The notes: generated from the letters alone by a model not told the origin. A stretch of 64,000 bases of DNA from Candidatus Poseidoniales archaeon (GCA_003602415.1 QQSK01000011.1:4186-68185); one strand, 5' to 3'; counted from the stretch's first letter, positions 2,969-39,761 are shown. Numbers and translations are program-made.

Positions 2969-3835
2969 ATGAGCACAATATTTTGGGTACTTTGGTTCTT
3001 TATAGCATTCATCATCGTTCTAATCGCATTTACACTGCGAAAAGAAAACGAAGAAATTCCACGCAGAGAAATTCTACGCGCTGTAGAATCAAGTGGAAAG
3101 ATGGGATTCGCTGAACGTGCATTCCTTTGGGTATTTTCATTCCTAGACACGAGATTCCGAATTCAAGATTATTGGAACATGAGCAAGGGCGCATATTACA
3201 ACATGCACAGACAAATGCCACTTACTCACGCAGAGAAATACAAACTGCGAATCATTTGGTATTGGTATCCATTGTATTGTTTAGGAGGGATTTCTTTCCT
3301 TTCATTCATTATTCTTGTAATCACTGGAACAGTTCTGGGAATATACTACGTCCCTGGTGGTGAAGGTGATCCTTCTCCTGCTTACGCAAGTATGCAGTTC
3401 ATCATGACTCAGTTACCATTCGGCTACATTATCCGTGCAGTACACCACTGGGGAACTCACTTCATGGTAGCATCAGTATTCTTACACATGTGTAGAGTAT
3501 ACTTCACTGGGGCATACAGAAATCCACGTGAGTTAAACTGGCTAATCGGAGTTGCACTGATGGCGCTGACTATTGTTTTCGGATATTCTGGATACTTACT
3601 GCCTTGGGACACATTGGCATACGGTGCTGCAGTTATTGGAATCAACTTAGCAAATGCTACACCGTTGATTGGTAAAAACATTGCAACTCTGCTATTCGGT
3701 GGCTCATCCCTATCACACCGAACCGTAACTAGAATGTACTTCATTCACGTATTCATCTTACCAGTGATTGTTACAACACTGATTATCATACATTTGTTCA
3801 TTGTATGGGTACAAGGAATTGCGGAGCCGCATTGA
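2969..3835 (+). CDS. cytochrome b, N-terminal four-helix di-haem domain (b6-like split form)
   Basis: HHWGTHFMVASVFLHMCRVYFTG and NWLIGVALMALTIVFGYSGYLLPWD. Second His pair in FIHVFILPVIVTTLIIIHLF. GAGGTGA SD upstream. Confidence 0.9.
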   Translation: MSTIFWVLWFFIAFIIVLIAFTLRKENEEIPRREILRAVESSGKMGFAERAFLWVFSFLDTRFRIQDYWNMSKGAYYNMHRQMPLTHAEKYKLRIIWYWYPLYCLGGISFLSFIILVITGTVLGIYYVPGGEGDPSPAYASMQFIMTQLPFGYIIRAVHHWGTHFMVASVFLHMCRVYFTGAYRNPRELNWLIGVALMALTIVFGYSGYLLPWDTLAYGAAVIGINLANATPLIGKNIATLLFGGSSLSHRTVTRMYFIHVFILPVIVTTLIIIHLFIVWVQGIAEPH

Positions 3836-3852
3836 TATTGGAGGTTTGAAAC

Positions 3853-6657
3853 ATGGGACTAATTGAGAATCTTGGTGCAGTTGCTTCATCCTATATGGAT
3901 GAAAAAGAAAGGCTAGAAACCGCAGACGAAAAGAGAAAGAGGACTCGGTCTGGCCATGGGTTTTGGCCTCATGAAGTTCTACGTGACACATTGATCTTCG
4001 GATTTATGGCATGTGTTCTATTGTTCTATGCTTGGTTAATTCCTCCTCCATTACATAGTGCTGCGGACCCATTCGCACAAGCTGGTTTCGTATTCCCTGA
4101 TTGGTATGTTCTATTCTCCTATGGATATCTAAGATGGGGAGAATATCTACCACAATTCGACGTGCCTTTAGGTCCTGTTGGAGACTTCTTTGGCCAACCA
4201 TCGTTCCCTTGGAATGCTGCATGGTGGGGTGCTTTCCTAACTGGAATCCCAGTAGGAATCCTAGCGCTACCTCCATTCCTAGGTGGTCGTGAAAAGAGAC
4301 CTGTTGAAGACCCGTGGTTTGCAAGTGCAGGTGTAGTTTACCTAGCACACATTTGGTTCATCTCTGTTTTCTCAATCAATATCTTCCTAGAATTATATGG
4401 TAAGAATAGGAGTGATTATTGTAAGTTAGATAGTCATGGAGATTTATTGTGTGGTACAAGAGATCCTTGGATTGCAGATTTATTCAACATGATTCCTTGG
4501 ATAATGACTGGCATCTTACTATGGATTATGATTTACTTCATAGCTAAATGGCTATTCAACAATGCTTGGGGTGCAAGGTTCACTCCTGCTCATGGAAAGA
4601 AATTGATTGTTGGTGCATTTATCGTTGCTACTGCAGCTAGCGTTGTTTCTTATCCTGTTTATGATAATGGATTCTGGGATGCAAAGGGTTTGCTTACCAT
4701 TTCTGATTATGGCGAACTAGAAGAAATGCGTTCACAGCCTACTGATGTTCACGTCCATGAGAGAAACGAATTCATGGACGCACAAGGATTTGAAGGAGAA
4801 ATAGTACCTGCTTCTGCTTGGATGGATTGGAATATATACCAACCTGCCAGATATTATCTGATAGATTTCGCAGATAATAATGGTCATCAAGATTTGGATT
4901 CAGGAATTAACGGCGCTACTGGTCTAGAAAATTATACTGCTGACGAAACCATTTGGGCAACAGGTACATTCATTATTTCGGATACATATTGGCCAGAAGA
5001 TAATGATTTCACAACAGTTCCAGTTGATGCGACTTGTGAAACAAGGGCGAGTGAAGTGATTATCGATGGAGGAGATTCTACCTCTGCAATGATTCAATCC
5101 AGTTTGATCATCAAATCCCGAGACACAAATAAGACGGTTATCGATACTGATTGTAACAGTGGTGAGACTGGAGTTGAACTCGAAGACGGAGAATATGATT
5201 ACGAGTTTAGAGTTGAATCAACAGATGGACTCAAGACAAATCAAAGTGTTACTGTTGAAACAATGTTCACAATAAGTGCTTACCAGCCACTTCTATTGTA
5301 TGATGATGATGCAAAGCACGGATTTGCTGGCAAAACAGTTGACCTGACAAACGTTACCGAATTAGCAATTGTAGGAGACGACATGGGAGAGGTTGTCAAT
5401 CCAACATACCATGCAAATCCTAAGGCATTAGATGCAAAATTGACCTATGCAATGTTCATTCCGTGCTTAACTGCAGGTGCGATTGTATTCGTAGTTCTAA
5501 GAAACATGGCAAGAGGATATGAATTCGAAATGAACAAATGTTACGGATGTGACCTTTGTGATGATGCTTGTCCTGTTAGATTATTCAACGCTGGTGACAA
5601 ATTGAATATCATTTACAATTCATGGAATAATGAAGATGATGGCGTACCGATGTATTCATGTTTGACTTGTACAGCATGTACCAATGCTTGTCCACAACTT
5701 GTCGATTACGACTCCTATGTTGATATTCGCCGCTCACTAATAGTCGGAGGGCCTGCTGCTGAGATTCCTCACACGGTTCTACAAGCGGTATTAGCTGCCG
5801 AAGCGGAAGAAGACAGTGATGGCGACTTTGTATCTGTTGAAGAATATCCAATCGATTCCAACATTGGTTACTATCCTGGATGTGTTGATTATCTGGACCA
5901 AGAAATGGTCTTCAGCCATCTCAATGAAGGTGAAATGAACCTCGGGGACACCACAAACTCTGCATTCACTCTGTTTGAGGAAATGGGAACTGAGGTATCA
6001 TACCTAGGAAGAGACTTCCTGAAGTGTTGTGGCCACGACCAAAAGTGGCAAGGACTTGATGAAGTATTTGAGAAATTGAAGTCATACAATCAGAAGAAGA
6101 TCGAAGCATCAGGAATTGACACTCTGGTATCTTCATGTGCTGAATGTTTCAGAACTTTCGCAAGAGATTACGAATTAGAAGGTGTGAAAGTCATGCACAC
6201 CACTGAGTTCCTTATCGAAAACGGATTCGATATGGAGATGAAGGTCGAAGATGAATTGACTGTAACCTATCATGACCCATGTAGACTTGGTAGGCAAATG
6301 GGAATCTATGACGAACCTCGTGAATTAGTTGCAGGTGTAGAAGGTGTCGAACTTGTTGAGATGGAACACCATGGTGAAGATGCAATGTGCTGTGGAGTTT
6401 CCAGCATGATGTCATGCAACGAAAATGCACGTGCTTTGAGAGTTACAAGAATGGAAGAAATCAGGAACACAGGCGCTGATATGATGATTACATCGTGTCC
6501 AAAGTGTGTTTCTCACTTCGAATGTTTGAAATTTGAAGGCGATGAAAGACACGATATCGAGATTCTCGATGTTGTTTCATTCCTTGCAAGACAAGTTGAA
6601 GCAAAGAAATCCATTGCAGATGAAGTATCAACTGCTCAAGTTTCTGTAGAAGCTTAA
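3853..6657 (+). CDS. fusion protein: cytochrome b C-terminal / subunit-IV-like module + extra TM helices + ~258-aa outward insert + HdrD/GlpC-type 2x[4Fe-4S] and 2xCCG domain
   Basis: Single 934-codon ORF with a GGAGGT SD. N-terminus reads FWPHEVLRD..DPFAQAGFVFPDWYVLFSYGYLRW (PEWY-type Qo loop). Six hydrophobic helices by eye. C-terminus has CYGCDLCDDACP and CLTCTACTNACP, then C-x47-CC-x35-CAEC and C-x35-CC-x34-CPKC (hand count). Confidence 0.85.
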   Translation: MGLIENLGAVASSYMDEKERLETADEKRKRTRSGHGFWPHEVLRDTLIFGFMACVLLFYAWLIPPPLHSAADPFAQAGFVFPDWYVLFSYGYLRWGEYLPQFDVPLGPVGDFFGQPSFPWNAAWWGAFLTGIPVGILALPPFLGGREKRPVEDPWFASAGVVYLAHIWFISVFSINIFLELYGKNRSDYCKLDSHGDLLCGTRDPWIADLFNMIPWIMTGILLWIMIYFIAKWLFNNAWGARFTPAHGKKLIVGAFIVATAASVVSYPVYDNGFWDAKGLLTISDYGELEEMRSQPTDVHVHERNEFMDAQGFEGEIVPASAWMDWNIYQPARYYLIDFADNNGHQDLDSGINGATGLENYTADETIWATGTFIISDTYWPEDNDFTTVPVDATCETRASEVIIDGGDSTSAMIQSSLIIKSRDTNKTVIDTDCNSGETGVELEDGEYDYEFRVESTDGLKTNQSVTVETMFTISAYQPLLLYDDDAKHGFAGKTVDLTNVTELAIVGDDMGEVVNPTYHANPKALDAKLTYAMFIPCLTAGAIVFVVLRNMARGYEFEMNKCYGCDLCDDACPVRLFNAGDKLNIIYNSWNNEDDGVPMYSCLTCTACTNACPQLVDYDSYVDIRRSLIVGGPAAEIPHTVLQAVLAAEAEEDSDGDFVSVEEYPIDSNIGYYPGCVDYLDQEMVFSHLNEGEMNLGDTTNSAFTLFEEMGTEVSYLGRDFLKCCGHDQKWQGLDEVFEKLKSYNQKKIEASGIDTLVSSCAECFRTFARDYELEGVKVMHTTEFLIENGFDMEMKVEDELTVTYHDPCRLGRQMGIYDEPRELVAGVEGVELVEMEHHGEDAMCCGVSSMMSCNENARALRVTRMEEIRNTGADMMITSCPKCVSHFECLKFEGDERHDIEILDVVSFLARQVEAKKSIADEVSTAQVSVEA

Positions 6658-6711
6658 TCACTTTTCAGTGATAAAAAACGGCCCAAGATTGATAATCAAT
6701 ATTGATATCAG

Positions 6712-7506
6712 ATGGTTATGGATTATGACTCTCATACATTGATTCAACTCAAAACAATGTGTAAAGATAGAGGACTCAGAGTCAGTGGAACAAAGGCAGA
6801 AGTAATCATTCGTCTAATGGAAGATGATGAATCAAAATTACCTACTCCTGTAATGGTTCCAACACAAACAATCCAGATGCATCCACAACATCATCAGGTT
6901 CAACCTGTGACTCATATCTATGTAAACAATAATTCTGATTTAACTTTACAATTAACAGGAATTGGAATTCTATTGTATGGAATATTCCGTATTGGCATGG
7001 CCTTACTGTTTAACGAGTGGATGCCTGCTGAATCATTTTTGGCAATGTTGATTGGCCTAGGGTTTATTCTTGGTGGAGTTACTACGATTCAGGGTTACAA
7101 ACAAGGACTTCAACTTACGTTAGGAGTATTAGTTGTTTCAGGAATTCTTTCACTCATCAATCATGACGAATTTTCGCCACTGTCCATTGGAATGGGAGGA
7201 TTTTGGCCAGTTTGGCTTTCACTCTTATGCTCTGGAACATGTATGATCATTGTAGCAACCCCACTCCTAGGAGTTGCTGATTCCCAATTTAGAGCCGGCT
7301 CCCCCAACTATATGACTTCAGCAATTAATACGGCTGACTTTGTATCACCAGCACCACTTGTGATGAAAGAACCAGATAAAAGACCGGCTACTGAAGGAAA
7401 AATTGTCACAAAGTGTGTTCACTGTCAATCTAAATTGAAGGTACCAATCGGTTACAAAGGACGAGTAAAATGTCCTACATGTAATGAAAGATTCAAAGTT
7501 GAATAA
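6712..7506 (+). CDS. SAP-domain / multi-TM / C-terminal zinc-ribbon protein
   Basis: N-terminal LIQLKTMCKDRGLRVSGTKAEVIIRLMEDDE matches the SAP helix-extension-helix pattern. Four to five TM helices follow. The C-terminus is KCVHCQSKLKV..VKCPTCNERFKV (CxxC..CxxC). Confidence 0.6.
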   Translation: MVMDYDSHTLIQLKTMCKDRGLRVSGTKAEVIIRLMEDDESKLPTPVMVPTQTIQMHPQHHQVQPVTHIYVNNNSDLTLQLTGIGILLYGIFRIGMALLFNEWMPAESFLAMLIGLGFILGGVTTIQGYKQGLQLTLGVLVVSGILSLINHDEFSPLSIGMGGFWPVWLSLLCSGTCMIIVATPLLGVADSQFRAGSPNYMTSAINTADFVSPAPLVMKEPDKRPATEGKIVTKCVHCQSKLKVPIGYKGRVKCPTCNERFKVE

Positions 7507-7791
7507 TCATTCAGTTGGAGGACTATCTTCGTCCATACCCCGGATTTCATAGTTTGAAGGGAACATAGCAACAATGACTCCTGCGATAAGGAAGCCCAAG
7601 CCCAAGCCAAATTTTTGTTCAACGAACAAGAATTCTAGAGCAAAAACGACCAATAACAATCCTCCTATATTGGATACCCAGACAAGAGTTTTGAAAGTCG
7701 AAAGTGATACTCCAGTGGTATTTGGTCCTCTGACTGGCCCGAATTCTCCGCCAAATCTCTGAGCCCCTTCGTGTTCTGGTTGCTTACTCAT
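7507..7791 (-). CDS. small membrane protein (last gene of the coupled operon)
   Basis: ORF with two hydrophobic helices. The ATG at 7791 (MSKQPEHEG) is 4 nt after the ferredoxin stop; the track start 7806 would overlap it. Confidence 0.4.
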   Translation of the reverse strand: MSKQPEHEGAQRFGGEFGPVRGPNTTGVSLSTFKTLVWVSNIGGLLLVVFALEFLFVEQKFGLGLGFLIAGVIVAMFPSNYEIRGMDEDSPPTE

Positions 7792-7795
7792 ATTA

Positions 7796-8128
7796 TCACC
7801 TATCAATCATTGTAATCGCATCAGTAGGACATGCCAACACACAGAGTCTGCATCCTGTACATGCATCTCTGATGATCTTGGCTTTACGGTTGCTAGGAAC
7901 TTCTAACAATGGTGAAGACATCTCTTTGAAATATAATTCAATGGCGTCATCATCACAAACGATTGTGCATTGGTCACATCCAATACACAAGTTCTCAGTC
8001 ACCCAAGCAACTGTACCTTCACCACCTTTGATAGTTGACCTGCGTTCTCCTTTCTGTCTTGCAAGAGAAATCGCAATTCGCTCAGCCTCTGCTTCGCGAC
8101 GCTTAGCCAAGTCTTCAGGTGAGGTCAT
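7796..8128 (-). CDS. 2x[4Fe-4S] ferredoxin-domain protein
   Basis: CIGCDQCTIVCDDDAI and CTGCRLCVLACPTDAI. ATGA start/stop overlap with the upstream gene. Confidence 0.8.
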   Translation of the reverse strand: MTSPEDLAKRREAEAERIAISLARQKGERRSTIKGGEGTVAWVTENLCIGCDQCTIVCDDDAIELYFKEMSSPLLEVPSNRKAKIIRDACTGCRLCVLACPTDAITMIDR

Positions 8129-8772
8129 TCATTACCCTCCAACAAGTGCTTACCTTCAAACCTCTCGACTGATAGATTCACCAAAAGGTCTCCCAAACAG
8201 TAGAATGCACCTACTAATAATGGTGGATTCCAAGCGGTTAATCCAGTCCAAGGAACATCATTAGCCCACGTCCAATTAGCAAGATGTGTGCCCCACAATT
8301 CCATTAGCAAGGCCAGCCAAGCCATTGTGGCATAAAGTGAGGCCTGAGGGCCCCATTTTGTGAAACCTAGTACCATAATTAGCAAAAAGAGGCCAGAAGT
8401 ATCTCCACCAGTCCAAACTCCATAGGCCACCAATGGAACAAATGGAATAAGAGACCACACAGCCTTGTCTTTTGGAAGATAGTGAGAGAGTTGGCGACCA
8501 GTATCAAATAAGAACCAATGACCCACTGGTACGAAAAGTGGCATCAATCCTCTTTGATACTCGTAGATTAGCCATACCTCGCTAAAAAACAACTCCATAG
8601 GAGTTGCAAATGCTAGAACTGTTAGCATCTCAATTCGTTCTTTCCTCTCGGCATAAACATAAAGCCAAATGAACAATGAAATACACCAAATATTTACTGG
8701 TAATTCAGAGTATTCAGCGCTGACATACAGCCCTATCGAAATTGTGAGGACATAGATTAGTACACGATTCAT
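8125..8772 (-). CDS. polytopic membrane protein, unknown function
   Basis: Six to seven hydrophobic helices and Trp-rich loops. ATG at 8772 (MNRVLIY) sits 11 nt after the upstream stop; the track start is 8805. No family recognised. Confidence 0.5.
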   Translation of the reverse strand: MNRVLIYVLTISIGLYVSAEYSELPVNIWCISLFIWLYVYAERKERIEMLTVLAFATPMELFFSEVWLIYEYQRGLMPLFVPVGHWFLFDTGRQLSHYLPKDKAVWSLIPFVPLVAYGVWTGGDTSGLFLLIMVLGFTKWGPQASLYATMAWLALLMELWGTHLANWTWANDVPWTGLTAWNPPLLVGAFYCLGDLLVNLSVERFEGKHLLEGNE

Positions 8773-8782
8773 GCATATCCCT

Positions 8783-9766
8783 TCATTGCAATTCGATTGA
8801 AACACCTTCTGAACGCATTACATCGATTACCATTCGCACAACATCATCTGGTAAATCTTCAGGTGCATGTACTCCTGGTGACAACATGTCTTGATTTTCA
8901 GCCCAGGCTTTGACACAACAAGCTGTTACTAGACCAGTTGTTCTAGCCATACTTGAATCACCATTTTTGCCACGGTCTTCCACAATCCATCTTTGTTGTT
9001 CATCTCCTGATGAGATGAATACTTCCATCCAAGTAAATTCTTGGCGTTGAGGATCTAATTTCCACGCATCAACCAACTCATCCGCAGTTAGTTTTGATTG
9101 CTGATATTTCTGAATATGGCCTGGCCATCGCACGGTATATTCACCCATATGTGTGGCAGGAATATCTAGTAAGGACCTAAGACCATCTGTAAGGAATGCT
9201 TCCATCTCTCTACCGCTTGCATCTATAGTGTGTAAATCACTCATCGCATCGACTTGAGTATGCTTTCCATCAACCACAATTCTAGCAGGTCTGGTGTACT
9301 CTGCAATCACATCATGTGGAGAAAAGGGAGCCATGTACGACCATTCTGAATCTGGAATTAGAGGATTGCCTCCAACCTTGATTGTCACCTTATCTAAGAA
9401 ACCAAATTCTCTGAAGGCCATTCCGACCAACATGTTCGACAAACCAGGAGCGATTCCCACATCCCAAAGAATTGAACTAACAATACCATTGTGCCGGTCA
9501 GGAGTTTGTTCACTGAATGACAAATCTACTATTTTTTGACCTGAATCCTTTAGCAGTTCAGTAGCTTTTCCACCTATTGAACCAGGAAGCATGTTTACAA
9601 TCAAATCTGCAATACTGTGGTCAAAAGACATAGCATCACCCAAATGGAAATTGGCTTCAGTATCTCTTGAAACAATGTCGTATAGGTGTACTTCGAAGCC
9701 TGAATTCACAAGATTTTTTGTGACAAAACTTCCAACTAGACCTCCTCCAAGACAGTGAATTCTCAC
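8783..9766 (-). CDS. saccharopine-dehydrogenase-like NAD(P)-dependent oxidoreductase
   Basis: Rossmann motif at the very N-terminus (RIHCLGGGLVGSFV). Size and C-terminal domain are typical of the saccharopine / carboxynorspermidine / lysine-6-dehydrogenase family. GTGA overlap with the upstream stop. Confidence 0.65.
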   Translation of the reverse strand: MRIHCLGGGLVGSFVTKNLVNSGFEVHLYDIVSRDTEANFHLGDAMSFDHSIADLIVNMLPGSIGGKATELLKDSGQKIVDLSFSEQTPDRHNGIVSSILWDVGIAPGLSNMLVGMAFREFGFLDKVTIKVGGNPLIPDSEWSYMAPFSPHDVIAEYTRPARIVVDGKHTQVDAMSDLHTIDASGREMEAFLTDGLRSLLDIPATHMGEYTVRWPGHIQKYQQSKLTADELVDAWKLDPQRQEFTWMEVFISSGDEQQRWIVEDRGKNGDSSMARTTGLVTACCVKAWAENQDMLSPGVHAPEDLPDDVVRMVIDVMRSEGVSIELQ

Positions 9767-10977
9767 ATAGAGCCCTCCAGTTGCTTTTTTGATTCAGCGC
9801 CCATGGCTAGCATTGATAATTCAGCGATTAAAGCATGCCAACCGTGAGCATGCTCTCCGAATTTATCTCCAACTTCACTGTAGGGGAGGAATCTTGCAGA
9901 TGGTGAGTTGAGATTTTCCATTTCACCTTTCTTCGAATTGATTCTGTAAAACCAAGATGCCGCCTCTCCATCAACGAGATAGACTACTGGCTCTACCGGA
10001 GAGCCGTCTGTGGATTTCATAAGAGTTGGAACTCCTTCTTGTATCAAAAAGTTCTCAACATCAACTCCACCTTTAGAATACATCAAACGCTTGAACTTGC
10101 GATTTGAAAGATTGAGGAGTTGATCTCCGCTGCTGACTGCCATTATTCCCAAACCATATGTTCCTCTATCGTTCTTGATGAATGCAACTGGTTCCCTATC
10201 TATTCCCAGTATCTCATATCGATGTGCAATTTTTGCTAAAAACTCATCAACTTCAGCAGCTAACATCTGCCTGCAAGTTTCTTTTTCAAGACATTTATCT
10301 TTACTAACAAACCAATCTGTCATAAGATGCCAAGAATCTATTCCCAAAATATCTGCAATTTCGTCAACATAGCTTTGTAGACAAGCATAATGCTCTGATT
10401 TTCTTCTTCGCTGCCATCCCATATGAGGTGGAGGGAACACTTGATTGGACGACAGTCCTGGCAACAAACCTTCAGTCAAGTCATTGTTTAGCATAATCAA
10501 ATCTGGTTGTTCTCCTTCGACGAGTAACGAATCGCCATCCAAGATAACTTCATTCAATAGTAATGGACCTGAAATACCATCCAATGAACCATGCCCTTCC
10601 AGTTCAGGCGAACCTACTGTGCACCGGAAGCCACCCATAGTAATTAGTCGCTTTATGGTTGAAACATTTTCCACATATCCTTGATTCCTTGTATGGGATT
10701 CAGGATAGAGATGTACCCATTTACAATTTTGATTTAACCGCAGAATGTGGTCACGTAACAATGATGAAAGATTGGATTCGTCTTCTTTTGAAACATTGTT
10801 AAATCCAGCAGGGAAGTGATTAGCATCTACCACTGCAACTTTCCAACCACTATCTCTGATGTCCACGCTACCGTAGATTGGAATCGGAACCTCGGAACGT
10901 TTAGTTGCCATCCATTGAGTAATTTCGCTTCTCTTTTCCTCGAGAAGTTTAGTTAGATTATGGACTACAAATTTCAA
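9763..10977 (-). CDS. ATP-dependent carboxylate-amine ligase, resembles the rare Acidithiobacillus-type glutamate-cysteine ligase (GshA) family
   Basis: 404 aa. YGSVDIRDSGWKVAVVDANHFPAGFNN and IKNDRGTYGLGIM recall the Pfam GshA / TIGR02049 family from memory only. TTG start in a TTGA overlap with the asnB-like stop. The coding call is firm; the family call needs an HMM. Confidence 0.45.
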   Translation of the reverse strand: MKFVVHNLTKLLEEKRSEITQWMATKRSEVPIPIYGSVDIRDSGWKVAVVDANHFPAGFNNVSKEDESNLSSLLRDHILRLNQNCKWVHLYPESHTRNQGYVENVSTIKRLITMGGFRCTVGSPELEGHGSLDGISGPLLLNEVILDGDSLLVEGEQPDLIMLNNDLTEGLLPGLSSNQVFPPPHMGWQRRRKSEHYACLQSYVDEIADILGIDSWHLMTDWFVSKDKCLEKETCRQMLAAEVDEFLAKIAHRYEILGIDREPVAFIKNDRGTYGLGIMAVSSGDQLLNLSNRKFKRLMYSKGGVDVENFLIQEGVPTLMKSTDGSPVEPVVYLVDGEAASWFYRINSKKGEMENLNSPSARFLPYSEVGDKFGEHAHGWHALIAELSMLAMGAESKKQLEGSM

Positions 10978-12686
10978 TCTAATTCCTCCAATAAATCGGT
11001 TGCGCTGCCTGAGCGTTTGCTTCTACCACCATCTAATATGTGCATTGATTCAAACAACCCTAATCCAATTGCAATCTCTGGCTGCTTGATTAACGCTCGT
11101 TCTAATCCAGAGTAGCGTTTAGCAATTTTTGTAACATGAGGTTGAAGATCATCTATTAGTGAATCAATCAACTTAGGCGATGTTGCTCTACCTGCAGGTA
11201 GTTTAGGCCTTCTTACTATGTCCGAAGGGAGTTTAGTCAATTCGGCTGCTGCTCGAAGTGCTGCTTTTTCTTCACCTGAACTTGGTAATCTCCAATCCAT
11301 TGGAAGCTTGTTAGATGCTTTGCGATGCCTACTTCCCAAAAACGGAACTCGTACTTCTAAACCGTGGGCCATTGAGTGCCTGTCGACCAATCTCAATTGG
11401 AAATTGGATAACTGGCCATGGTCTAATTCAAACTGCAAGAAATCTTGCAAAGAACCTGTATGAGCATCTGGTGAGTGATTTGTAGTCCACCATTGTTCTC
11501 CTTGAAGTGACGACAAATCACAGTCCATATCAGCAAGCCTTTGAGTTATTGACCGATTATGTTTCTCCAAATTTTTGTATCGAGGGTAACCGGCATGTAA
11601 TTCATCTGCTCCCTGTCCACAAAGCCCTACGGTTACGGATTCAGACATCTTCGAAAACAAAGGCTGGAAAAATAATACTGTCACATCCAAATCTTCTCCG
11701 TGCCAAGCCAAATCAGGTAATTTAGAATCAAAGGAGTCCGGCGACAAAATATGTTGATGGTGTTCTAAATCAAGACTAGATGCCACTATTTCAGCAGCTT
11801 GCCAATCGGGATTATCTTCGCTTTCAGCAACAGTCCAGCATGCAGGAACTGGTTGTTCTGCAATTTCTGCTGCTTCTCTTGCAACAGCACAAACCAAACT
11901 GGAATCTAATCCACCTGAAAGAACAATGCCAACTGGTACATCGGCCATCAAGCGATCACTGACGCTTAAAGTAAAACTGTCCAACAAACCACGAGGGTCA
12001 TTCCAATCAATTTCTGGCTCAACAGATTGTACTTCAAATCTCGACATACTGGTCATTGTTGGAGTGCCATCAATCATTTCCCAAACTTCTACTGTGCCCG
12101 GTCGAACTTGATGAACTCCTGAAAATAAAGTGGTTGCATCAAGAGGATATTCCCATGCAATTCTTGCTTTAAGTGCCAAGATATCGATATTTGGCACATA
12201 TTCATCATAGGCTCGCAGTGCTTTGGCTTCTGATGCAAAAAGTAGATTTCCATCGACTGTAGTCCGCATCAAAGGTTTGATTCCAACAGGGTCACGAGCA
12301 AGAATTAGTTGGCCTTCAGACCACAATGCAAATGCAAACATGCCATCTAATTTTGAGATCCATTTGGCATGCTCACTAGCAGAAGATTTTCCATTATGTA
12401 GTGATAATACAATCTCACTATCTCCGTTGGTAGTATAGTTGTATAAACTATCCCTCAAGGACTTGTGATTGTAGATTTCACCATTCACAACTCCAACTTT
12501 ACCTGGTCCACTTATTGGCTGAGGAGAGCCTTCAATATCCAGAATTGCTAGACGAGTATGAGCAAGACCGCAAATATCATCATTGTAGATTCCATTTCCA
12601 TCGGGACCTCGATGATGTAGCAATGAAACCATGCGTGACAGGACGTTTGCGTCCGGCTGACCAAGCATCCCTGCTATGCCACACAT
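10974..12686 (-). CDS. asnB: asparagine synthase-like glutamine amidotransferase (class II Ntn + PP-loop)
   Basis: MCGIAG N-terminal nucleophile Cys, DGMFAFALW, and SGGLDSSLV PP-loop. Confidence 0.85.
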   Translation of the reverse strand: MCGIAGMLGQPDANVLSRMVSLLHHRGPDGNGIYNDDICGLAHTRLAILDIEGSPQPISGPGKVGVVNGEIYNHKSLRDSLYNYTTNGDSEIVLSLHNGKSSASEHAKWISKLDGMFAFALWSEGQLILARDPVGIKPLMRTTVDGNLLFASEAKALRAYDEYVPNIDILALKARIAWEYPLDATTLFSGVHQVRPGTVEVWEMIDGTPTMTSMSRFEVQSVEPEIDWNDPRGLLDSFTLSVSDRLMADVPVGIVLSGGLDSSLVCAVAREAAEIAEQPVPACWTVAESEDNPDWQAAEIVASSLDLEHHQHILSPDSFDSKLPDLAWHGEDLDVTVLFFQPLFSKMSESVTVGLCGQGADELHAGYPRYKNLEKHNRSITQRLADMDCDLSSLQGEQWWTTNHSPDAHTGSLQDFLQFELDHGQLSNFQLRLVDRHSMAHGLEVRVPFLGSRHRKASNKLPMDWRLPSSGEEKAALRAAAELTKLPSDIVRRPKLPAGRATSPKLIDSLIDDLQPHVTKIAKRYSGLERALIKQPEIAIGLGLFESMHILDGGRSKRSGSATDLLEELD

Positions 12687-12733
12687 GACACTGGCTGAAA
12701 CAAATCATTCAAGAGACCTTGCTTTGTTTCTAA

Positions 12734-12844
12734 TTACCAAAGTGGGTATACGAACATTGTAATCATTAGGATTACGAACGATAGAATGAATGTCACTAAG
12801 TAGGTACTCTGAGGAGGGTCCGGAGATGGTGCATCGTCACTCAT
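12734..12844 (-). CDS. candidate 36-aa hydrophobic micro-protein
   Basis: Hand-translated sORF below the track cut-off: MSDDAPSPDPPQSTYLVTFILSFVILMITMFVYPLW followed by a stop. One TM helix. Lies in an otherwise empty 210-nt gap. No other support. Confidence 0.25.
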   Translation of the reverse strand: MSDDAPSPDPPQSTYLVTFILSFVILMITMFVYPLW

Positions 12845-12896
12845 TGTGTCTCACCTATCCAATGGCGGGACTAGGAGCCATTTCAACATAATGGTC

Positions 12897-13514
12897 TCAT
12901 AACCAAGGTACAAGCATTATTACAAATGAAAGAGGAATCAACAACATAGTAGCATTGTCATCAATCCATCGTAACCTTGGCCATTCTGCCGCAACACATA
13001 GTGGCCCCATAATCAGGGCTATCCAAATTGGTGTTCCAGTAAAATGCCAACAGGAAAGCCAGATCAATGCAATAAATAATGAACCAAAAATGAAGACATT
13101 TTTTGTCTCGATTTCCTTTCTTCTCAATTCTCCAAGGAAAGGGTCCCCCAATGATAAAGAAAGAATGAGAGGCCAAACTAACTCAGGATAATCTGACAAA
13201 ACAAGGAATGTCAAACCAACTGCAATACCACCCCAAGCTAATGCACTTACTTGCTTTGATTCATAGTCACGTTGACCAAAAATTGTGATTCCCATTTTCA
13301 ACCTTAATGCCTCTACCAAAATTAGGGAAAGAGTGAGTGAAGAGACTAGTTGTAATTCTGTTATTGAGAGCGCATCTGCCAATTTTTCTGCATATTCATA
13401 GTACACGAATGGAATAATTGACATGCCAATATGAAAGGCTCTTCTGAAGACATGACCTGATACTCCACCCACTGAATGGTCCACAGGGTCAGTTAATTCG
13501 ATTTGCTCACTCAC
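12897..13514 (-). CDS. integral membrane protein, unknown function
   Basis: 205 aa with about 6 hydrophobic helices. Its start overlaps the meaB stop region. A polyprenol-kinase-like assignment would be only a guess. Confidence 0.5.
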   Translation of the reverse strand: MSEQIELTDPVDHSVGGVSGHVFRRAFHIGMSIIPFVYYEYAEKLADALSITELQLVSSLTLSLILVEALRLKMGITIFGQRDYESKQVSALAWGGIAVGLTFLVLSDYPELVWPLILSLSLGDPFLGELRRKEIETKNVFIFGSLFIALIWLSCWHFTGTPIWIALIMGPLCVAAEWPRLRWIDDNATMLLIPLSFVIMLVPWL

Positions 13515-14328
13515 TAAGTTCCCTCAGTGCCATGTCGAGTTCTAACCCTTCTTGAGACATGCGGTCAAGAATTGCCTCAAAGTTGGGATTTGTGATTAAA
13601 ATATTCTCATGCGCCATAATCAATTGCTGACGGCATCTAGCCCGTTTTGACGAAATTCTTTCTTCTAGATTCATTATCACATTTGCCAGTTCATCCAAAC
13701 CTTCTTCGGTAAGGGTACTGGTTTTGATTATTTGAGGTGCGTCATTAGTTAGTGACAATGAGATTGTAAGGTCATTTACAACACGATCTACACCATCTAA
13801 ATCAGATTTGTTTACGACTATCAAATCAGCCAATTCAAGTAAACCTGCTTTCTCTGCCTGAATGCCATCTCCACGTGCAGGACCTTCAACTACAACAATT
13901 CTGTTTGCTATTGCAGCGCAACGCATTTCAGATTGTCCTGCTCCGACGGTTTCAATTATCACAATATCAAAAGATTCTGCCAATAAATGGTTCGCAAGGC
14001 CCTTAACTATAGAAGGCACAGAACCACTAGAAGACCTAGTAGCAACACTTCGAACATATATTGAATCTGATTTTGACTTATCATCAAGAACGCTTAGTCT
14101 AATTCTATCTCCTAACAAAGCCCCACCACTTAGAGGAGAGGTGGGGTCTACCGCCAATACCGCAACTTTATTTTGTGGAGTAAGACGTTGCAAAATTGAA
14201 TCAACCAAACAGGATTTACCAATTCCAGGAGGGCCTGTAATCGCAACTATCAAACCTTCAACATCTGAAACTACTAGTTCACCGTTCTCAATAGCAGACA
14301 ACTGCCTTGCTAAAGAACGGCGGTCCAA
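13507..14328 (-). CDS. meaB: methylmalonyl-CoA mutase-associated G-protein chaperone (MeaB/ArgK)
   Basis: GPPGIGKS P-loop, DPTSPLSGGALLGDRIR, ETVGAGQSE, VNKSDL. Confidence 0.85.
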   Translation of the reverse strand: MDRRSLARQLSAIENGELVVSDVEGLIVAITGPPGIGKSCLVDSILQRLTPQNKVAVLAVDPTSPLSGGALLGDRIRLSVLDDKSKSDSIYVRSVATRSSSGSVPSIVKGLANHLLAESFDIVIIETVGAGQSEMRCAAIANRIVVVEGPARGDGIQAEKAGLLELADLIVVNKSDLDGVDRVVNDLTISLSLTNDAPQIIKTSTLTEEGLDELANVIMNLEERISSKRARCRQQLIMAHENILITNPNFEAILDRMSQEGLELDMALRELSE

Positions 14329-14766
14329 TCACTCACCCCAATGCCAATCATTTTGTGAACCAACACCACAATCTTTCGTAGATGCAACTTCAACAAATTC
14401 AAGGATTTCAGAAGAAGAAGTACCTGGACCAAAAATCGCCTTTACACCCGCTTCATACAACGGAGCCCTGTCGGATTCAGGGATAATCCCTCCACCGAAA
14501 ACAATGACATCATCAAGTCCGGATTGCCTCAGCAATTCACAAATCTTAGGAAATAGATGACTGTGTGCGCCTGATAGTGAAGATAATCCTACAAAACGGG
14601 CATCTTCATCCATTACGGTTCTTACAATCTGGTCAGGAGTTCTTCGTAATCCTGTGTAGATTACTTCGTGACCTCCATCTCGTAGAGCTCTAGCAACAAC
14701 CTTGGCGCCACGATCATGTCCATCCAAACCGGGTTTGGCGATTACGATGCGCTGACGGGCTCCCAT
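14329..14766 (-). CDS. methylmalonyl-CoA mutase, B12-binding small subunit/domain
   Basis: IVIAKPGLDGHDRGAKVVARALRDGGHEVIYTGLRRTPDQIV (DxHxxG cobalamin motif). The ATG at 14766 (MGARQRIV) is preferred to the GTG at 14820. Confidence 0.85.
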   Translation of the reverse strand: MGARQRIVIAKPGLDGHDRGAKVVARALRDGGHEVIYTGLRRTPDQIVRTVMDEDARFVGLSSLSGAHSHLFPKICELLRQSGLDDVIVFGGGIIPESDRAPLYEAGVKAIFGPGTSSSEILEFVEVASTKDCGVGSQNDWHWGE

Positions 14767-14866
14767 ATTCGGGTGTGTGTAGTAGCGTGTATGAAGCGGT
14801 TGCGGTGTAGAAATGCTCACGCAACCAATAAGGAGGGTCTAACACTGTCGCCATTTGGCGAAAGGC

Positions 14867-16420
14867 ATGATGGGTACCGATGAGAGGTTACGGGACTTGA
14901 GGGCGCGCAAGGCGCGAGTTGAAGCTGGAGGCGGTCAAGCAAGGGTCGATGCTCAACATAATAAGGGCAAAATGACCGCAAGAGAACGCCTTGAAATGCT
15001 TCTTGATGAAGGTTCATTCCAAGAGATAGACGCACTTGTTGAACACAGGTGTCGTGATTTTGATATGGACAAGAATATCATCCCTGGTGACGGAGTGGTA
15101 ACTGGCCATGGAACTGTAAATGGTAGAGAAATATTCGCATTCGCTCAAGATTTCACAGTTTATGGTGGAAGCCTAGGAGAAATGCACGGGCTGAAAATTT
15201 GTAAGGTCCTAGATATGGCACTCAAAACTGGTCGACCCGTAATTGGATTGAATGATAGTGGTGGTGCTAGAATTCAAGAAGGCGTTGCAAGTTTAGGATC
15301 ATATGCTGAGATTTTCTTCAGAAATGTTAGAGCGAGTGGTGTGGTTCCACAAATTAGTGTAATTATGGGGCCATGTGCAGGTGGAGCTGTTTACTCTCCT
15401 GCGATTACTGATTTCGTGATAATGGTCGACAAAACTGCACACATGTTCATCACAGGACCTGAGGTCATCAAGACGGTTACAAATGAAGAAGTTTCATTCG
15501 AAGATTTAGGCGGAGCAGGGACACATGGCAGTAAGTCAGGAGTCTCTCACTTTACTGCTGAAGACGATCAAAGTGCTATTGATTTAGCCAGAGAACTTGT
15601 TGACATGTTCCCTTCAAACAACATGGAAAAACCTCCGATTAAGAAAAGTTCAGATTCACCAAACCGAATCTGTGAGAAATTGGATTCGATTGTTCCAGAA
15701 GACCCTACAAAGCCCTATGATGTAAAGGATGTAATTACTGAAATCCTTGACGATGGTGGATTCCTAGAAGTCCAAGAGAATTGGGCTGGAAATATCGTGG
15801 TTGGGTTCGGACATCTTAACGGGTCAACTGTAGGAGTGGTTGCAAATCAACCAAAGATGTTAGCAGGATGTCTGGACATTGATGCCAGTGACAAGGCTGC
15901 TCGCTTCGTAAGGTTTTGTGATGCATTCAACATCCCATTGATTACTCTGGAAGACGTCCCAGGATTCTTACCAGGTACAAACCAAGAATGGGGAGGAATA
16001 ATCAGACATGGAGCTAAACTTCTCTATGCATATGCAGAAGCAACTGTTCCAAAATTAACTGTGATTCTGCGCAAAGCGTACGGCGGTGCATACGATGTCA
16101 TGTCCTCTAAACACATCAGAGGAGACTACAATGTTGCTTGGCCTAGCGCTGAATTGGCTGTAATGGGTGCAGAAGGTGCTGTGCAAATTATCCACAGACG
16201 CAGATTGCAAAATGCTAGAGACCCTGAAGGGGAAAGAGGTAGATTAATCGATGATTTCGAAGAAAAGTTCGCTAATCCATACAAGGCTGCTGCATTAGGT
16301 TATCTTGATGATGTAATCGAACCAAATCAAACAAGAGAACGATTGTGTAAGGCATTAGGCATGTTACTTGACAAAGAAGAACTACGCCCTGCTAGAAAGC
16401 ATGGGAACATACCATTGTGA
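14867..16420 (+). CDS. pccB: propionyl-CoA / methylmalonyl-CoA carboxyltransferase (beta subunit)
   Basis: Full-length carboxyltransferase pattern ([48 protein letters not shown]). The ATG at 14867 is preferred to the TTG at 14855. Confidence 0.9.
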
Positions 16421-23400: not shown

Positions 23401-26400
23401 TCAGCGATTTGGAATATCTCCAATTTGACCGATCTCATTAGCAACTCTAGTCAGTGCTTCCTGTGCACTAGTCTTGTGGACTTGTCCCATCTCGTGTCGG
23501 CTGTAACGTGCTTCTTCGAATACAGAATCTAGTGCAGATAATGATTCCTCGGATAGATTAGGCAGTGCTGCTCTAATAGCCATCTCGAATTCTCTAACGG
23601 TTTCGAAATCTCGTCGCAGGAATCCTCTACCCATCAATAAGTGAACTAGACTTTCATAACATTGGAAAATAGCCTCACGCATTGAATCGCCTGCAGCAAG
23701 TAACTCTGCAGTGTAAGAGAAGATATCTGCAATCTCTTTTGCTGCATCCTCTGCTCTTCTTCTTAGAACGACGAATGTAGTTACGCCTGCAAGTAATAAT
23801 GCGATGAATACATAGAACCATACAGATTCGAATATCGAGGTTTCTTCACCTTCGTAGGAATAATCTGGAGTGATTCCAGAATTGAATTGAGTGTTAAACT
23901 CTGTCATCGAATTATCCGAAATCACGAAGTTGGATGTGATTGACATCTTCAAAGTCAATTCTCCATATTCTGATGCATCACCATATGGAGGCTCGGCATT
24001 AAATTCGAAAGAAGCGGTTCCACTCGAATCTGTTACAATAACAACCTCATCTAGACGTGTGCCGCTTTCATTCTCCAGATAAACAGAGATTGCAATTCCT
24101 TCAACACCATCGCCAGTGTCTTTAGCAACCAATTCAATATCACCTTTCACAACTTCTTGCTCATTTTCAACTATAGGCTCAATGTCTACATCGAATGGAG
24201 TTTCAAGATCAATTCTGACCGATATTGAATCTGTCCAAGAATTGCCTTCTCGCAGATATAGCGATGAGTTTTGAGGTGTTTGAATATTCAATTGCATTTG
24301 CCCTGGCTCTATCCATGAAGGAGCAGTAGCGACGATAGTGTATGTTCCACCATTCCAAATTACACTCTCGATATTGATACAACGGGCCTCTGTTCCACTT
24401 GAATCACAATTAATTCCATTTCCAAGAATGAGTGCTGCATCATCTATGAGTACTCCTTGTCCACCAATCTCAGTTACTCTACCTGTGATCTGAATCCTGT
24501 GCTCAACTCCATCTCCTCTGACCACATATGTATTGGCTGAATCGATATGAACGGTTACATCTGCCCATACGGTGATTGTTTGATTGGATGCCACAGGCAG
24601 ATGGCCTGGACTTCCTTCAAAGTCAAATGTCATGATGTGATTACCACGTGCATAGGAAGATTCAGCTCTTATGGAAGTGCTGAATTCACCATTGATAGAT
24701 GTTACAACCGTATCTACAAGTGAGCCTCCGATGTAGATAGAAATTGTCTCACCTGCTAATCCATCATTCAATGCTGTGTCAATATCGTACAATGTACCTG
24801 TGATTTCCCAGAAATCATCTCTAGTAGCATCATTATCTGAAATGCTAACCGTCATTCCTGTACGATGTGCCAAGAAGAATGTCGTATTTCCTTGTCCAGA
24901 ACGGTACCAGCCTTGGGCAGGTACATCTGCGATTACAGTGTGATTACCGTCTGCAAAGATGTTAGGGACTTGCCAATTGAAACTGAAGTTTCCATTTGCA
25001 TCGGTTGTTGCATTTCCAATCGAGACTCCTTCAACAGTTACCAATACGAACATGTTTGCTAATGGATTTAGTTGGTTATCTCCAACGAATCCATCGACAG
25101 TGGTTAATTGCTCAACAGCAAGTGGTGATTCGATATTCACTTGTACAAAGATCTTGGAGAATATATTCCAAGTTCCATTATTTGTTGAAGGTAGATATCC
25201 TACTGAACCAGTAAATCTAGTTTCTAACAAGACAGGGCCCAATTCTGCATCGGCAGGAACTGGGTGAATTGCTGTGAAAGAACCATCTGCAGTTGTGGTT
25301 ACATTGGTAAGGAAAACTCCTCCCAACCAGATTTCAATGGATTCGCCTTCGAGAGGATTGTCCACTATGTCCAAGAGACGACCTTGAACTGTTAGAGTAT
25401 CCTCACGGTCAACTTGACCTCCTTGAGTGATTAACAGTATCTTGGTAGGAACTGCCACTGTGAAGTTCACTGAATCTGAACTTGGGTGATAGAAATCTGG
25501 GTTTGCACTATCACCATCTCCTACAGGGTCGACCCAATCTCTTCCTCCAGCAAAGCTCACGATTATGTTATGCTGTCCTGCATTGATACTTTCTGGAGAG
25601 TTCCATGCGAACATAAACATTCCATCAGCAGAATTCGATTGAACACTTGAAACTGGTACTCCATCGACCAATAGATAAACAACTGCAATTGAGTTGTTTC
25701 CATCTATCTGTAATGGTAAGCCAAGGTCATCTAGTAGTGTACCATTGACATAGAGAACATCTCCTGCAGTAATGGCCGATGAACTTTCAGTGATGTTGAC
25801 AACAGTTTGACCAAGGACTACGAAAGTGACACTTGCGGTATCTCCAACTAGCCCGGTAGTTCCAGGTATTCCTGTAAACTCTGCATCTAGATCATGGAAT
25901 CCTACCTGCACATCAGCAGGCACTGTTAGATTCACATCTACAACACCCATTGAGTCAGTAGTTCCAATTGTCGTCACGCTTGTACCGTTTAGAGAAACTG
26001 TGACTTGGGCTCCAACGACTGCAGCGCCTGTATTGTCAAACAATTGCAATCTTGCATTTACATCATCTCCACGGTCAGTTCTATCATTGAGGGACGGTTG
26101 GTTAACCCCATCAAGTGAAGGAGATACAAACGTTAGAGTCGTATACCCTCGACTATCGAAGGATTGATTCGCACTAGAACCAGAATAATAGTTCACCGAA
26201 GGGATATATTGTGCTTCGGCAATATGTGTGCCTGCACCAAACCCGGAAGACAGGGCGATATTGGCTGTCCAACTTCCATTAGCCTGTATTTGTCCGTTAG
26301 TCAAAGTAAATCCTGTTGCATTTCCATCGATTGTGAACAGAACATTCGCAGTCAATTGATTGCCGTTCCTCAACTGAAGTGCGCTTCCGTTATCGCTTTC

Positions 26401-32292: not shown

Positions 32293-32376
32293 ACGCACGG
32301 CTAACACCAAGACTTCGGTATCACCAAAGGCACTTAATGGAAATGGTACATTGTTCATACACAATTTTGCCAAAAC

Positions 32377-32393
32377 TCTCCCCTACGGGGAGA
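32377..32393 (-). terminator. hairpin plus U-tract after the 966-aa (ATG 35315) gene
   Basis: TCTCCCC TAC GGGGAGA, a 7-bp stem with loop GUA on the minus strand. It lies 22 nt after the stop at 32415 and is followed on the minus strand by GUUUUGG. Confidence 0.35.
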
Positions 32394-32414
32394 AAATTAA
32401 CGATTTTAGAGGTA

Positions 32415-35315: not shown

Positions 35316-35380
35316 GCGCACCAATATACCGTCTGCGCTGGGGTGTTAAACCGTTTTGCACAGATTGCTTACCAAAGGAG

Positions 35381-35395
35381 TCACCCTACGGGTGA
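35381..35395 (-). terminator. hairpin overlapping the stop codon of the 807-aa gene
   Basis: TCACCC TAC GGGTGA, a 6-bp stem with the same GUA loop as 32377-32393. It is followed on the minus strand by CUCCUUUGG. Confidence 0.3.
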
Positions 35396-38823: not shown

Positions 38824-39753
38824 ATGACAGTGCGAAAATTGACTATGGCCAAAGCTAGAACTCGTCTTCCAGAGTGGTTTAGAACTCGCCTTCCGTCCGG
38901 TGAATTACAGAAGAAATTCAACGAAACCAAGAGCACGGTTACCGAAAATATGCTTCACACTGTTTGTCAAGAAGCTCGTTGCCCAAATATCCACGAATGC
39001 TGGGCTGCTAAGGATGCAACCTTCATGGTTGCAGGACAAGAATGTACAAGAGGATGTAGATTCTGTGCAGTTGGTACTATCAAAAGACCACCTCCTCTAG
39101 ATGAAAATGAACCGCAAAATTTGGCGGATGCAATTTCAACAATGGGTCTTAATCATGCAGTTATCACTGTTGTAAATCGTGATGACCTTCCAGATAGTGG
39201 CGCATCTCATTATCGTAAATGCCTAGAAGCGGTTAGAGAAAAATCACCTGAAGTTAGTTTGGAATTACTTTGTAGTGATTTGGCTGGAGACCACCAAGCC
39301 CTACAATCACTTCTAGAAGATATGGAGTTGGAAGTTTTCGCCCACAATGTTGAGTGTGTGCCACGTTTGGATTCGGTAGTTAGAGACGCTAGAGCCTCAT
39401 TTAAGCAATCTATTGGAATACTAATTCAAGCAAAGAAATTACGCCCAGACATTCTAACAAAGTCATCATTGATGGTCGGTTTAGGCGAAACTGATGAAGA
39501 AATCGTCGAAGCATTGCAACTGCTCAAAGACGCTGATGTAGACTTGGTTACAATCGGACAATACCTTGCACCAAGTCCAAATCATTTGCCGGTTGATAGA
39601 TTTCCCGAACCATCACAATATGATGATTGGAGTAAGAAGATTGAGGAAATGGGTTTCCTTGGTTGGGCTTGTGGACCATTGGTTAGGTCTTCGTACAAGG
39701 CTGGTGAACTTCTTGCCAAGGCATCGGCAAGGCTTAGAACGGTCAAGGAGTGA
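38824..39753 (+). CDS. lipA: lipoyl synthase
   Basis: CQEARCPNIHECW auxiliary-cluster motif and radical-SAM CTRGCRFCAV. Confidence 0.9.
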   Translation: MTVRKLTMAKARTRLPEWFRTRLPSGELQKKFNETKSTVTENMLHTVCQEARCPNIHECWAAKDATFMVAGQECTRGCRFCAVGTIKRPPPLDENEPQNLADAISTMGLNHAVITVVNRDDLPDSGASHYRKCLEAVREKSPEVSLELLCSDLAGDHQALQSLLEDMELEVFAHNVECVPRLDSVVRDARASFKQSIGILIQAKKLRPDILTKSSLMVGLGETDEEIVEALQLLKDADVDLVTIGQYLAPSPNHLPVDRFPEPSQYDDWSKKIEEMGFLGWACGPLVRSSYKAGELLAKASARLRTVKE

Positions 39754-39761
39754 GATGTTAC

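Follow-up and report, generated by a model that had tools for sequence, protein, structure and literature searches.

We describe a 64,000-nucleotide (nt) stretch of a Candidatus Poseidoniales archaeon genome (GCA_003602415.1, QQSK01000011.1:4186-68185; hereafter the window, with positions counted from its first letter), in which a run of six closely packed minus-strand genes begins with one for an AsnB-like amidotransferase (10974-12686) and one for a GshA-like ligase (9763-10977). As judged from gene neighbourhoods across genomes, these two genes are a conserved unit, taking the place of the bacterial pairing of GshA with GshB. We refer to the amidotransferase as AsnB*, or Q-type AsnB. In our estimate AsnB*-GshA probably functions as a module of two genes, and the six genes probably do not form one pathway. 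The fuller reading, in which the module would make an amidated gamma-glutamyl(-cysteine) compound and the downstream genes would be unrelated passengers, is one we hold with about even confidence, and the specific thiol-amide product is a tentative proposal, with the balance somewhat against it.

The conservation of the pair was assessed by scanning GTDB, with a single genome for each species, GshA as the anchor and an alignment of archaeal and bacterial representatives as the query. This gave 80 loci, in which the proteins of the window were located by tblastn. Together with a reverse test that began from AsnB, 91 loci were compared, 34 archaeal and 57 bacterial, and we cite them by L numbers. 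AsnB and GshA are adjacent in 31 of the 33 informative Thermoplasmatota loci, usually with a 4-nt overlap; L006 is uninformative for the pair because its contig stops short of the place where AsnB would be. In all informative Poseidoniaceae loci except L004, and also in L022, L023, L026 and L070, the gene just upstream of GshA is AsnB. For the reverse test we searched with the AsnB of L070 and took the contigs of seven matches ranging from 74% to 40% identity (L085-L091). A PF08886 GshA lies immediately downstream of AsnB in all seven, and five have the 4-nt overlap. Across both searches this overlap is seen in L001, L013, L014, L022, L023, L070, L085, L086, L087, L090 and L091.

The pair persists at 33-44% GshA identity with all other neighbours changed. 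L026, L070, L085-L088, L090 and L091 keep AsnB-GshA while the rest of the window's neighbourhood is gone, and in L026 and L070, where GshA is 33-35% identical to that of the window, the two genes are all that is left of it. The pair is also found in metagenome-assembled genomes (MAGs) of soil and freshwater Thermoplasmatota. The bacterial loci look different: in 27 of the 57, GshA has GshB (GSH-S_N plus GSH-S_ATP) immediately after it, often followed by ApbE, and GshB is found in none of the 34 archaeal loci, with flanks of up to 10 kb considered. Conversely, no AsnB was detected near GshA in the 57 bacterial loci even at E <= 1e-4, nor did tblastn find homologues there of the dehydrogenase, ferredoxin or membrane proteins encoded in the window's six-gene run.

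An initial annotation of this DNA had proposed that the second gene encodes a GshA-like enzyme of a carboxylate-amine ligase family, and the family searches bear this out. The protein matches PF08886 with 329.2 bits (cutoff 25; E = 3.7e-98), passes TIGR02049 marginally (297 bits, cutoff 293.9), and matches PDB 3k1t, annotated as 'glutamate-cysteine ligase GshA', at 8.6e-60 as a single sequence and at 3.5e-147 with a profile. An alignment of archaeal and bacterial GshA retains 31 invariant columns despite approximately 30-35% identity. The coupling of the bacterial family members to GshB supports gamma-glutamyl-cysteine (gamma-Glu-Cys) as the likely ligase product.

The AsnB-like protein matches Asn_synthase (PF00733) and GATase_6/7 (PF13537, PF13522), and it passes TIGR01536 (330 bits, cutoff 267). 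It falls below the cutoff of NF006949, 'asparagine synthase B' (256.8 bits, cutoff 499), and far below that of TIGR03104, its fourth-best NCBIfam match (221.8 bits, cutoff 570.1). Its best PDB matches are E. coli AsnB (1ct9, 6e-40), human ASNS (6gq3, 3e-38) and a hydroxyamidotransferase (7ylz, 1.5e-35), such that it is about equally similar to the last of these and to true asparagine synthetases. It carries the MCGIAG motif, the NGE and GDSE glutamine-binding motifs and the PP-loop SGGLDS. The acceptor pocket is where it departs from the asparagine synthetases: in the HMMER alignment, SGEGSDE of human ASNS becomes CGQGADE, and YLFDVLRADR becomes SNFQLRLVDR. These changes put Gln where human ASNS has Glu-364 and Asp-400, the acidic residues that hold aspartate (PMC6748925), and they do so in 140 of the 141 sequences of the Q-type clade, a set comprising 24 sequences from our loci and 117 from a search for AsnB homologues. 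Elsewhere the clade is conservative. Cys2 is present in 134 of the 141 sequences (the other seven have gaps), the PP-loop SGGLDS in all of them, and the counterparts of human D367, E368, D405, E414 and K466 are invariant. As far as sequence comparison can tell, then, the glutaminase and adenylation machinery of the clade is kept and the acceptor pocket is altered. Known asparagine synthetases conserve Glu-364 and Asp-367, and activity is lost in the E364A, E364Q and D367A variants of ASNS (PMC6748925), the E364Q effect having been measured in the human enzyme. Because Gln occupies the Glu-364 position and E364Q inactivates human ASNS, AsnB* is probably not an asparagine synthetase, and the label 'asparagine synthase (glutamine-hydrolyzing)' that its genes receive automatically is probably wrong. 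AsnB* is probably instead a working glutamine-dependent adenylating amidotransferase with an acceptor other than free aspartate. A 571-aa (amino acid) open reading frame (ORF) at 56750-58465, considered as a possible second AsnB in the window, is an arginyl-tRNA synthetase.

In the pathway that we propose, the PF08886 ligase would couple glutamate, at the expense of ATP, to cysteine or an amine like it, as its bacterial relatives do upstream of GshB. AsnB* would hydrolyse glutamine at its intact Cys2 glutaminase site, adenylate a carboxylate at its intact PP-loop site and turn that carboxylate into a carboxamide. The acceptor is probably not free aspartate, since both of the acidic residues that hold aspartate in asparagine synthetases are Gln here, and the leading candidate would be the ligase product, giving amidated gamma-Glu-Cys. 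Amidation would then replace the glycine addition catalyzed by GshB, and the product would be a GshB-independent, glutathione-like thiol. That aerobic Thermoplasmatota, including Marine Group II, make gamma-Glu-Cys amide or a close relative capped by a Q-type AsnB is possible, and we put it forward as a doubtful but specific proposal.

Several known systems resemble parts of this scheme. The closest is the bacterial gshA-gshB of the PF08886/TIGR02049 family (the Acidithiobacillus, Methylobacillus and Betaproteobacteria type), which has the same ligase family in a translationally coupled two-gene module. There the partner is an ATP-grasp glutathione synthetase encoded downstream, whereas the archaeal partner is an AsnB-type amidotransferase encoded upstream, and the predicted second step of the archaeal pair adds NH3 where bacterial GshB adds glycine. 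Asparagine synthetase B and human ASNS share with AsnB* a two-domain architecture, the Cys nucleophile, the glutamine-binding residues, the PP-loop and the counterparts of D367, E368, E414 and K466, and differ from it in having Glu-364 and Asp-400 (human numbering) where the AsnB* clade has Gln at both. Dapdiamide biosynthesis (DdaF/DdaH) follows the same logic of a ligase and an amidotransferase. So does the synthesis of the osmolyte N-acetylglutaminylglutamine amide (NAGGN) by Ngg and AsnO, in which an ATP-dependent peptide ligase works with an amidotransferase of the AsnB family that gives a carboxylate an amide cap. The initial annotation had drawn the NAGGN analogy, and its mechanistic logic stands; the family relationship does not, as seen in the TIGR03104 score and in the partner ligase, which is GNAT/ATP-grasp Ngg in the one case and in the other PF08886 only, with no acetyltransferase.

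For the predicted product itself, glutathione amide (gamma-Glu-Cys-Gly-NH2) has been reported in Chromatium (Bartsch et al. 1996, cited in PMC7278568). It is a natural precedent for a C-terminal carboxamide on a gamma-glutamyl-cysteine scaffold, and it differs in belonging to purple sulfur bacteria and in containing glycine. To our knowledge, no amidating enzyme has been assigned to the Chromatium compound, and a literature search directed at that enzyme found none. Haloarchaea have a gamma-glutamylcysteine system without GshB, made up of the GshA HVO_1668 and a gamma-glutamylcysteine reductase (PMC7554672, PMC7278568). This system is likewise archaeal, with a GshB-less glutamate-cysteine ligase making a low-molecular-weight thiol, but its ligase is from a different family and no coupled amidotransferase has been reported there. 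Glutathione is stated as not detected in archaea (PMC7554672), and a review of archaeal thiols that surveyed only GshA families IPR006334 and IPR006336 found no archaeal GshB (PMC7278568). The initial annotation could name no pathway to match the cluster, and the literature we searched likewise contained no characterized pathway for the AsnB-GshA pair; among the products that the annotation offered, a modified gamma-glutamyl thiol is the one that the evidence favors.

Some loci place genes of thiol type beside the pair. A glutaredoxin-like protein of 77-78 aa (CHEC or CFES motif; GST_N_3) is encoded directly upstream of AsnB in L086 and L090 and matches TIGR02196 at 4e-7, below the cutoff; a GST_N-like protein is encoded near the pair in L088, and a TPMT-family methyltransferase directly upstream of AsnB in L091. 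All of these neighbors point, weakly, to thiol chemistry. A PALP gene near the pair in L088 was considered as a cysteine synthase and was identified as a threonine synthase. Among 20 further ORFs of the window, Pfam searches found no glutaredoxin, GST or GshB, and the sole thiol-related match was a 2-oxoacid dehydrogenase E3.

A number of observations weigh against this interpretation. That the archaeal GshA clade is specific for cysteine is an assumption drawn from its family, with TIGR02049 barely passed. The clade shares 56 of the 116 positions that are invariant in GshB-linked bacterial GshA, although the bacterial sequences in that comparison are so close to one another that the differences cannot be interpreted. 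AsnB* passes the NCBIfam equivalog cutoff for asparagine synthase (TIGR01536), and other changes in the protein could compensate for its natural Gln at the Glu-364 position. The thiol-related neighbors occur in four loci only, and their family scores are weak. GshA is found without an adjacent AsnB in two archaeal loci, L004 and L057, so adjacency is not obligatory. In L004, a 6971-bp contig from a Joint Genome Institute (JGI) metagenome, a GshA 76% identical to that of the window (3307-4530) sits between a divergent TspO_MBR gene and a sodium:solute symporter (SSF) gene. In a rough neighbor-joining tree, the GshA of L004 and that of L057 are both nested in AsnB-linked clades, the former within the Poseidoniaceae clade, which suggests secondary relocation of the gene. 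Finally, the ferredoxin and small transmembrane (TM) protein genes of the six-gene run stay close to GshA throughout Poseidoniales (as in L089), and a link between them and the module is possible.

The initial annotation had gathered all six genes into one operon serving a dedicated small-molecule pathway. The gene structure that it described holds up in the ORF table, where six minus-strand genes are separated by 4-nt overlaps or by gaps of 4-10 nt, and the family identities that it gave agree with hidden Markov model and PDB matches. The AsnB-like gene comes first (570 aa, ATG start), and its stop overlaps the TTG start of the GshA gene (404 aa) by 4 nt (TTGA). The GshA gene in turn has a 4-nt overlap (GTGA) with the gene for a saccharopine-dehydrogenase-like protein (8783-9766, minus strand; 327 aa, GTG start). 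After a 10-nt gap comes the gene for a polytopic membrane protein of 215 aa (memb215; 8125-8772, minus strand, ATG start), which has a 4-nt overlap (ATGA) with that for a ferredoxin (7796-8128, minus strand; 110 aa, ATG start), and after a further 4 nt the small TM protein gene (7507-7791, minus strand; 94 aa) closes the run. The start of this last gene, ATG at 7791, was taken directly from the sequence. For memb215 the longest ORF is 8125-8805, and we place the start at the ATG at 8772 and not at 8805 because all 120 of the listed homologues are 212-220 aa long.

The six genes are likely co-transcribed, to judge from this spacing. Their tight packing is only mildly informative, and co-transcription in a compact genome does not imply common function. 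The coding density of the window is about 94% by a crude gene call, and 17 of the 35 other same-strand junctions in the crude gene table are 11 nt or less or overlapping, a count that longest-ORF starts inflate somewhat; with about half of the other junctions as tight, close packing is weak evidence of shared function. A second run of similarly tight junctions lies at 51173-56772. Nor does the minus-strand block end at AsnB. It goes on upstream through a 36-aa small ORF (sORF), a 205-aa membrane protein gene (memb205), MeaB and a B12-binding mutase subunit, and the whole co-directional block from 14820 to 7507 has no gap much above 50 nt. The apparent 210-nt gap upstream of AsnB is filled by the conserved sORF (12734-12844, minus strand; MSDDAPSPDPPQSTYLVTFILSFVILMITMFVYPLW), which encodes a single TM segment, ends 47 nt before AsnB, and is kept at a length of exactly 36 aa with DPPQ..Y and YP(L/V)W endings in 20 Poseidoniaceae loci, down to 36% identity. 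Since it fills this gap, the transcription unit may begin further upstream. An Rfam scan of 6500-15000 (E <= 0.1) returned no RNA family, and a repeat scan of 7400-13000 gave only short matches at chance level. The names carried by close homologues put the window in Candidatus Poseidoniaceae (Marine Group IIa). To describe the region as a co-directional gene string in a streamlined Poseidoniaceae (Marine Group II) genome, and not as one pathway, is a view to which we attach middling confidence.

The downstream genes are variable between loci. In Poseidoniaceae the order is B12-binding subunit, MeaB, memb205, sORF, AsnB, GshA, a variable slot, memb215, ferredoxin and small TM protein, followed by a convergent SAP-domain protein gene and then a gene for a 934-aa HdrD-like protein. 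The closest relatives (L001-L003, L005, L007, L010 and L025) keep all six genes in order, and L006 has the five downstream genes. The dehydrogenase occupies the slot between GshA and memb215 only in L001-L003, L005-L007, L010 and L025. In ten Poseidoniaceae loci (L008, L009, L011, L012, L015-L019 and L021) nothing fills this slot and 36-70 nt remain of it, and it holds a gene for a 798-aa arylsulfotransferase (ASST)-like protein in L013 (11268-13664) and L014 (4758-7118). In L022 and L023, where GshA is 44% identical, AsnB-GshA is kept, memb215 is gone, and the ferredoxin and small TM genes are inverted, with a GT4 glycosyltransferase gene between them; this gene lies downstream of GshA in place of the dehydrogenase. 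In L089, the ferredoxin and small TM genes come directly after GshA, and neither the dehydrogenase nor memb215 is present. None of the four downstream genes was found in any Thermoplasmatota locus outside Poseidoniales, those that keep AsnB-GshA included. The expectation of synteny conserved among related genomes therefore fails for four of the six genes, while AsnB-GshA stays together. The initial annotation had counted NAD(P)-dependent reductive C-N chemistry, an electron carrier and membrane components as parts of the pathway, and these fall outside the conserved unit. From these neighbourhoods, the dehydrogenase and memb215 are best read as variable passengers, and the ferredoxin and small TM protein as Poseidoniales-specific neighbours.

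A single pathway in which ligation, amidation, NAD(P)-dependent reductive C-N chemistry, ferredoxin and membrane components all lead to one small molecule can thus draw on co-directional genes with junctions overlapping or of at most 10 nt, and on the complete order in seven loci. It is largely refuted by the synteny, in which the dehydrogenase is missing from ten loci and swapped for an arylsulfotransferase-like gene in two others, memb215 is missing from L022, L023 and L089, the ferredoxin and small TM genes are inverted in L022 and L023, and all four are absent beyond Poseidoniales, and we regard it as very improbable. At the other extreme, the two genes of the pair could themselves be independent housekeeping genes, with AsnB* an asparagine synthetase, GshA making plain gamma-glutamylcysteine, and their adjacency inherited synteny in compact genomes. 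The TIGR01536 match fits this explanation, as do the tight junctions that are usual in the window, the capacity of GshA to stand alone in L004 and L057, and the haloarchaea and Nitrososphaerales, which are thought to end at gamma-Glu-Cys without GshB (PMC7554672, PMC7278568). What makes it unlikely in our view is that the pair, usually with its 4-nt overlap, survives at 33-44% GshA identity with other neighbours changed, and that the residue replacing Glu-364 across the clade is the one that inactivates human ASNS, with Asp-400, the second pocket residue, likewise Gln.

A joint module need not make a thiol. The ligase might take some amine other than cysteine and link it to glutamate (or aspartate), with AsnB* amidating the result to give an NAGGN-like compatible solute or another gamma-glutamyl amide. 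The Ngg/AsnO precedent for combining a ligase with an AsnB-type amidotransferase, the rank of TIGR03104 among the NCBIfam matches, the marginal TIGR02049 score, and the inclusion among the hosts of marine organisms that need osmolytes would all be in keeping with such a product, as would the many residues invariant in GshB-linked bacterial GshA that differ in the archaeal clade, although that comparison is not interpretable. However, TIGR03104 is missed by a wide margin, a GNAT domain is absent, and the pair also occurs in soil and freshwater MAGs, while the glutaredoxin-like, GST_N and TPMT neighbours and the 31 residues invariant between archaeal and bacterial GshA indicate a thiol. We consider the non-thiol product a little less likely even than independent housekeeping, and we retain amidated gamma-Glu-Cys as the working candidate for the AsnB*-GshA module.

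Of the variable genes, the one at 8783-9766 was confirmed as saccharopine-dehydrogenase-like by its match to Sacchrp_dh_C (PF16653; 84.7 bits, cutoff 31; 1.5e-23). It has an N-terminal Rossmann motif, GGGLVG (LGGGLVGS at residues 6-13), and aligns over its full length with PDB 3abi (1.8e-40; residues 1-325 against 17-363), the L-lysine 6-dehydrogenase PH1688 of Pyrococcus horikoshii (PMC10413350); here it is a patchy insert between GshA and memb215. It is best described as an accessory L-lysine-6-dehydrogenase-like enzyme in a variable slot, its specificity being a prediction. The membrane protein memb215 has about 8-9 predicted helices and is seen only in Poseidoniaceae loci. Neither it nor the small TM protein has a Pfam or NCBIfam match, and structure prediction yielded no fold assignment for memb215 (AlphaFold2 predicted local distance difference test score of 64 from 24 sequences, all at least 79% identical; best Foldseek hit against PDB at E = 0.84). 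The ferredoxin is of the 2x[4Fe-4S] type, with motifs CIGCDQCTIVCD and CTGCRLCVLACP (Fer4_21, 51.4 bits, cutoff 35, along with related 4Fe-4S families) and an N-terminal extension that is charged. The constraint on it is very strong: it is 97% identical to its counterpart in L001, where GshA is just 79% identical. The ferredoxin and small TM genes travel together, and they occur in the GshA neighbourhood only in Poseidoniales, where they stay near both GshA and the cytochrome b/HdrD-like cluster with changing orientations. L022 and L023 suggest that they are members of the latter cluster; in L089 they adjoin GshA, with the HdrD-like gene on the far side.

That cluster lies at 2969-6657 on the plus strand of the window and consists of a cytochrome b gene (288 aa) followed by the gene for the 934-aa protein, which has C-terminal Fer4 and two CCG (HdrD-like) domains and an N-terminus that by eye resembles the C-terminal part of cytochrome b (PDWY motif). 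The 934-aa protein is conserved beside the GshA neighbourhood in Poseidoniales. In L057, a Thermoplasmatota MAG, a 745-aa protein (11004-13241) with NarI-like, Fer4 and two CCG domains is encoded 0.9 kb downstream of the AsnB-less GshA, and the C-termini of this protein and the 934-aa protein share 28% identity. It is conceivable, as speculation, that iron-sulfur proteins near GshA recycle a disulfide. Between the cluster and the small TM gene, on which it converges with zero intergenic bases, lies the SAP-domain gene (6712-7506, plus strand), whose 264-aa product carries a SAP domain at its N-terminus, several TM helices, and at its C-terminus a CxxC...CxxC tail resembling a zinc ribbon. This protein is fast-evolving, with 58% identity to L001 where its neighbours have 80-97%.

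Upstream of AsnB, memb205 (12897-13514, minus strand; 8-nt overlap with the MeaB gene) encodes a polytopic protein with no Pfam or NCBIfam match, and it is found in all Poseidoniales-type loci, including L022, L023 and L089, at 48-76% identity. It is context, and its membership in the module is not demonstrated. Non-marine Thermoplasmatota share a different arrangement (L086 3310-8945, L087 3590-8912, L090 3318-8744 and L091 340-4584), in which NadE, on the opposite strand, CN_hydrolase and Dph6, of the diphthine-ammonia ligase family, precede AsnB*-GshA, sometimes with the glutaredoxin-like gene before AsnB*, and convergent heme O and heme A synthase genes (UbiA, COX15-CtaA) come after the pair. 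The Dph6, CN_hydrolase and NadE genes are treated as neighbours only. Elsewhere in the window, three very large ORFs follow one another (2990, 969 and 807 aa; 23401-37809, minus strand), and there is a plus-strand set (38824-44719) of lipoyl synthase followed by a 2-oxoacid dehydrogenase operon (E1 alpha, E2, E3), in which the crude gene caller left a stretch of about 1 kb between E1 alpha and E2 (41004-42026) uncalled.

Overall, the use of low-molecular-weight thiols in archaea is largely uncharted, and the sole genomic survey of it covered two other GshA families. The uncultured archaea of Marine Group II rank among the most abundant in the plankton of sunlit, oxidizing surface seawater. For such organisms, the pairing of GshA with a non-canonical amidotransferase, translationally coupled and found across the phylum, gives a concrete candidate pathway. 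As a lead, the AsnB*-GshA pair, undescribed in the literature searched, would be a variant of gamma-glutamyl peptide thiol biosynthesis. The case of AsnB* is also a warning that the current automatic annotation of its genes as asparagine synthases probably misleads. If the proposed product is right, gamma-Glu-Cys amide would serve the glutaredoxin-like proteins whose genes adjoin the pair in some lineages. Its recycling might then fall to the ferredoxin and the HdrD-like (CCG-domain) membrane proteins encoded nearby, and a major archaeal phylum would have in it a surrogate for glutathione.

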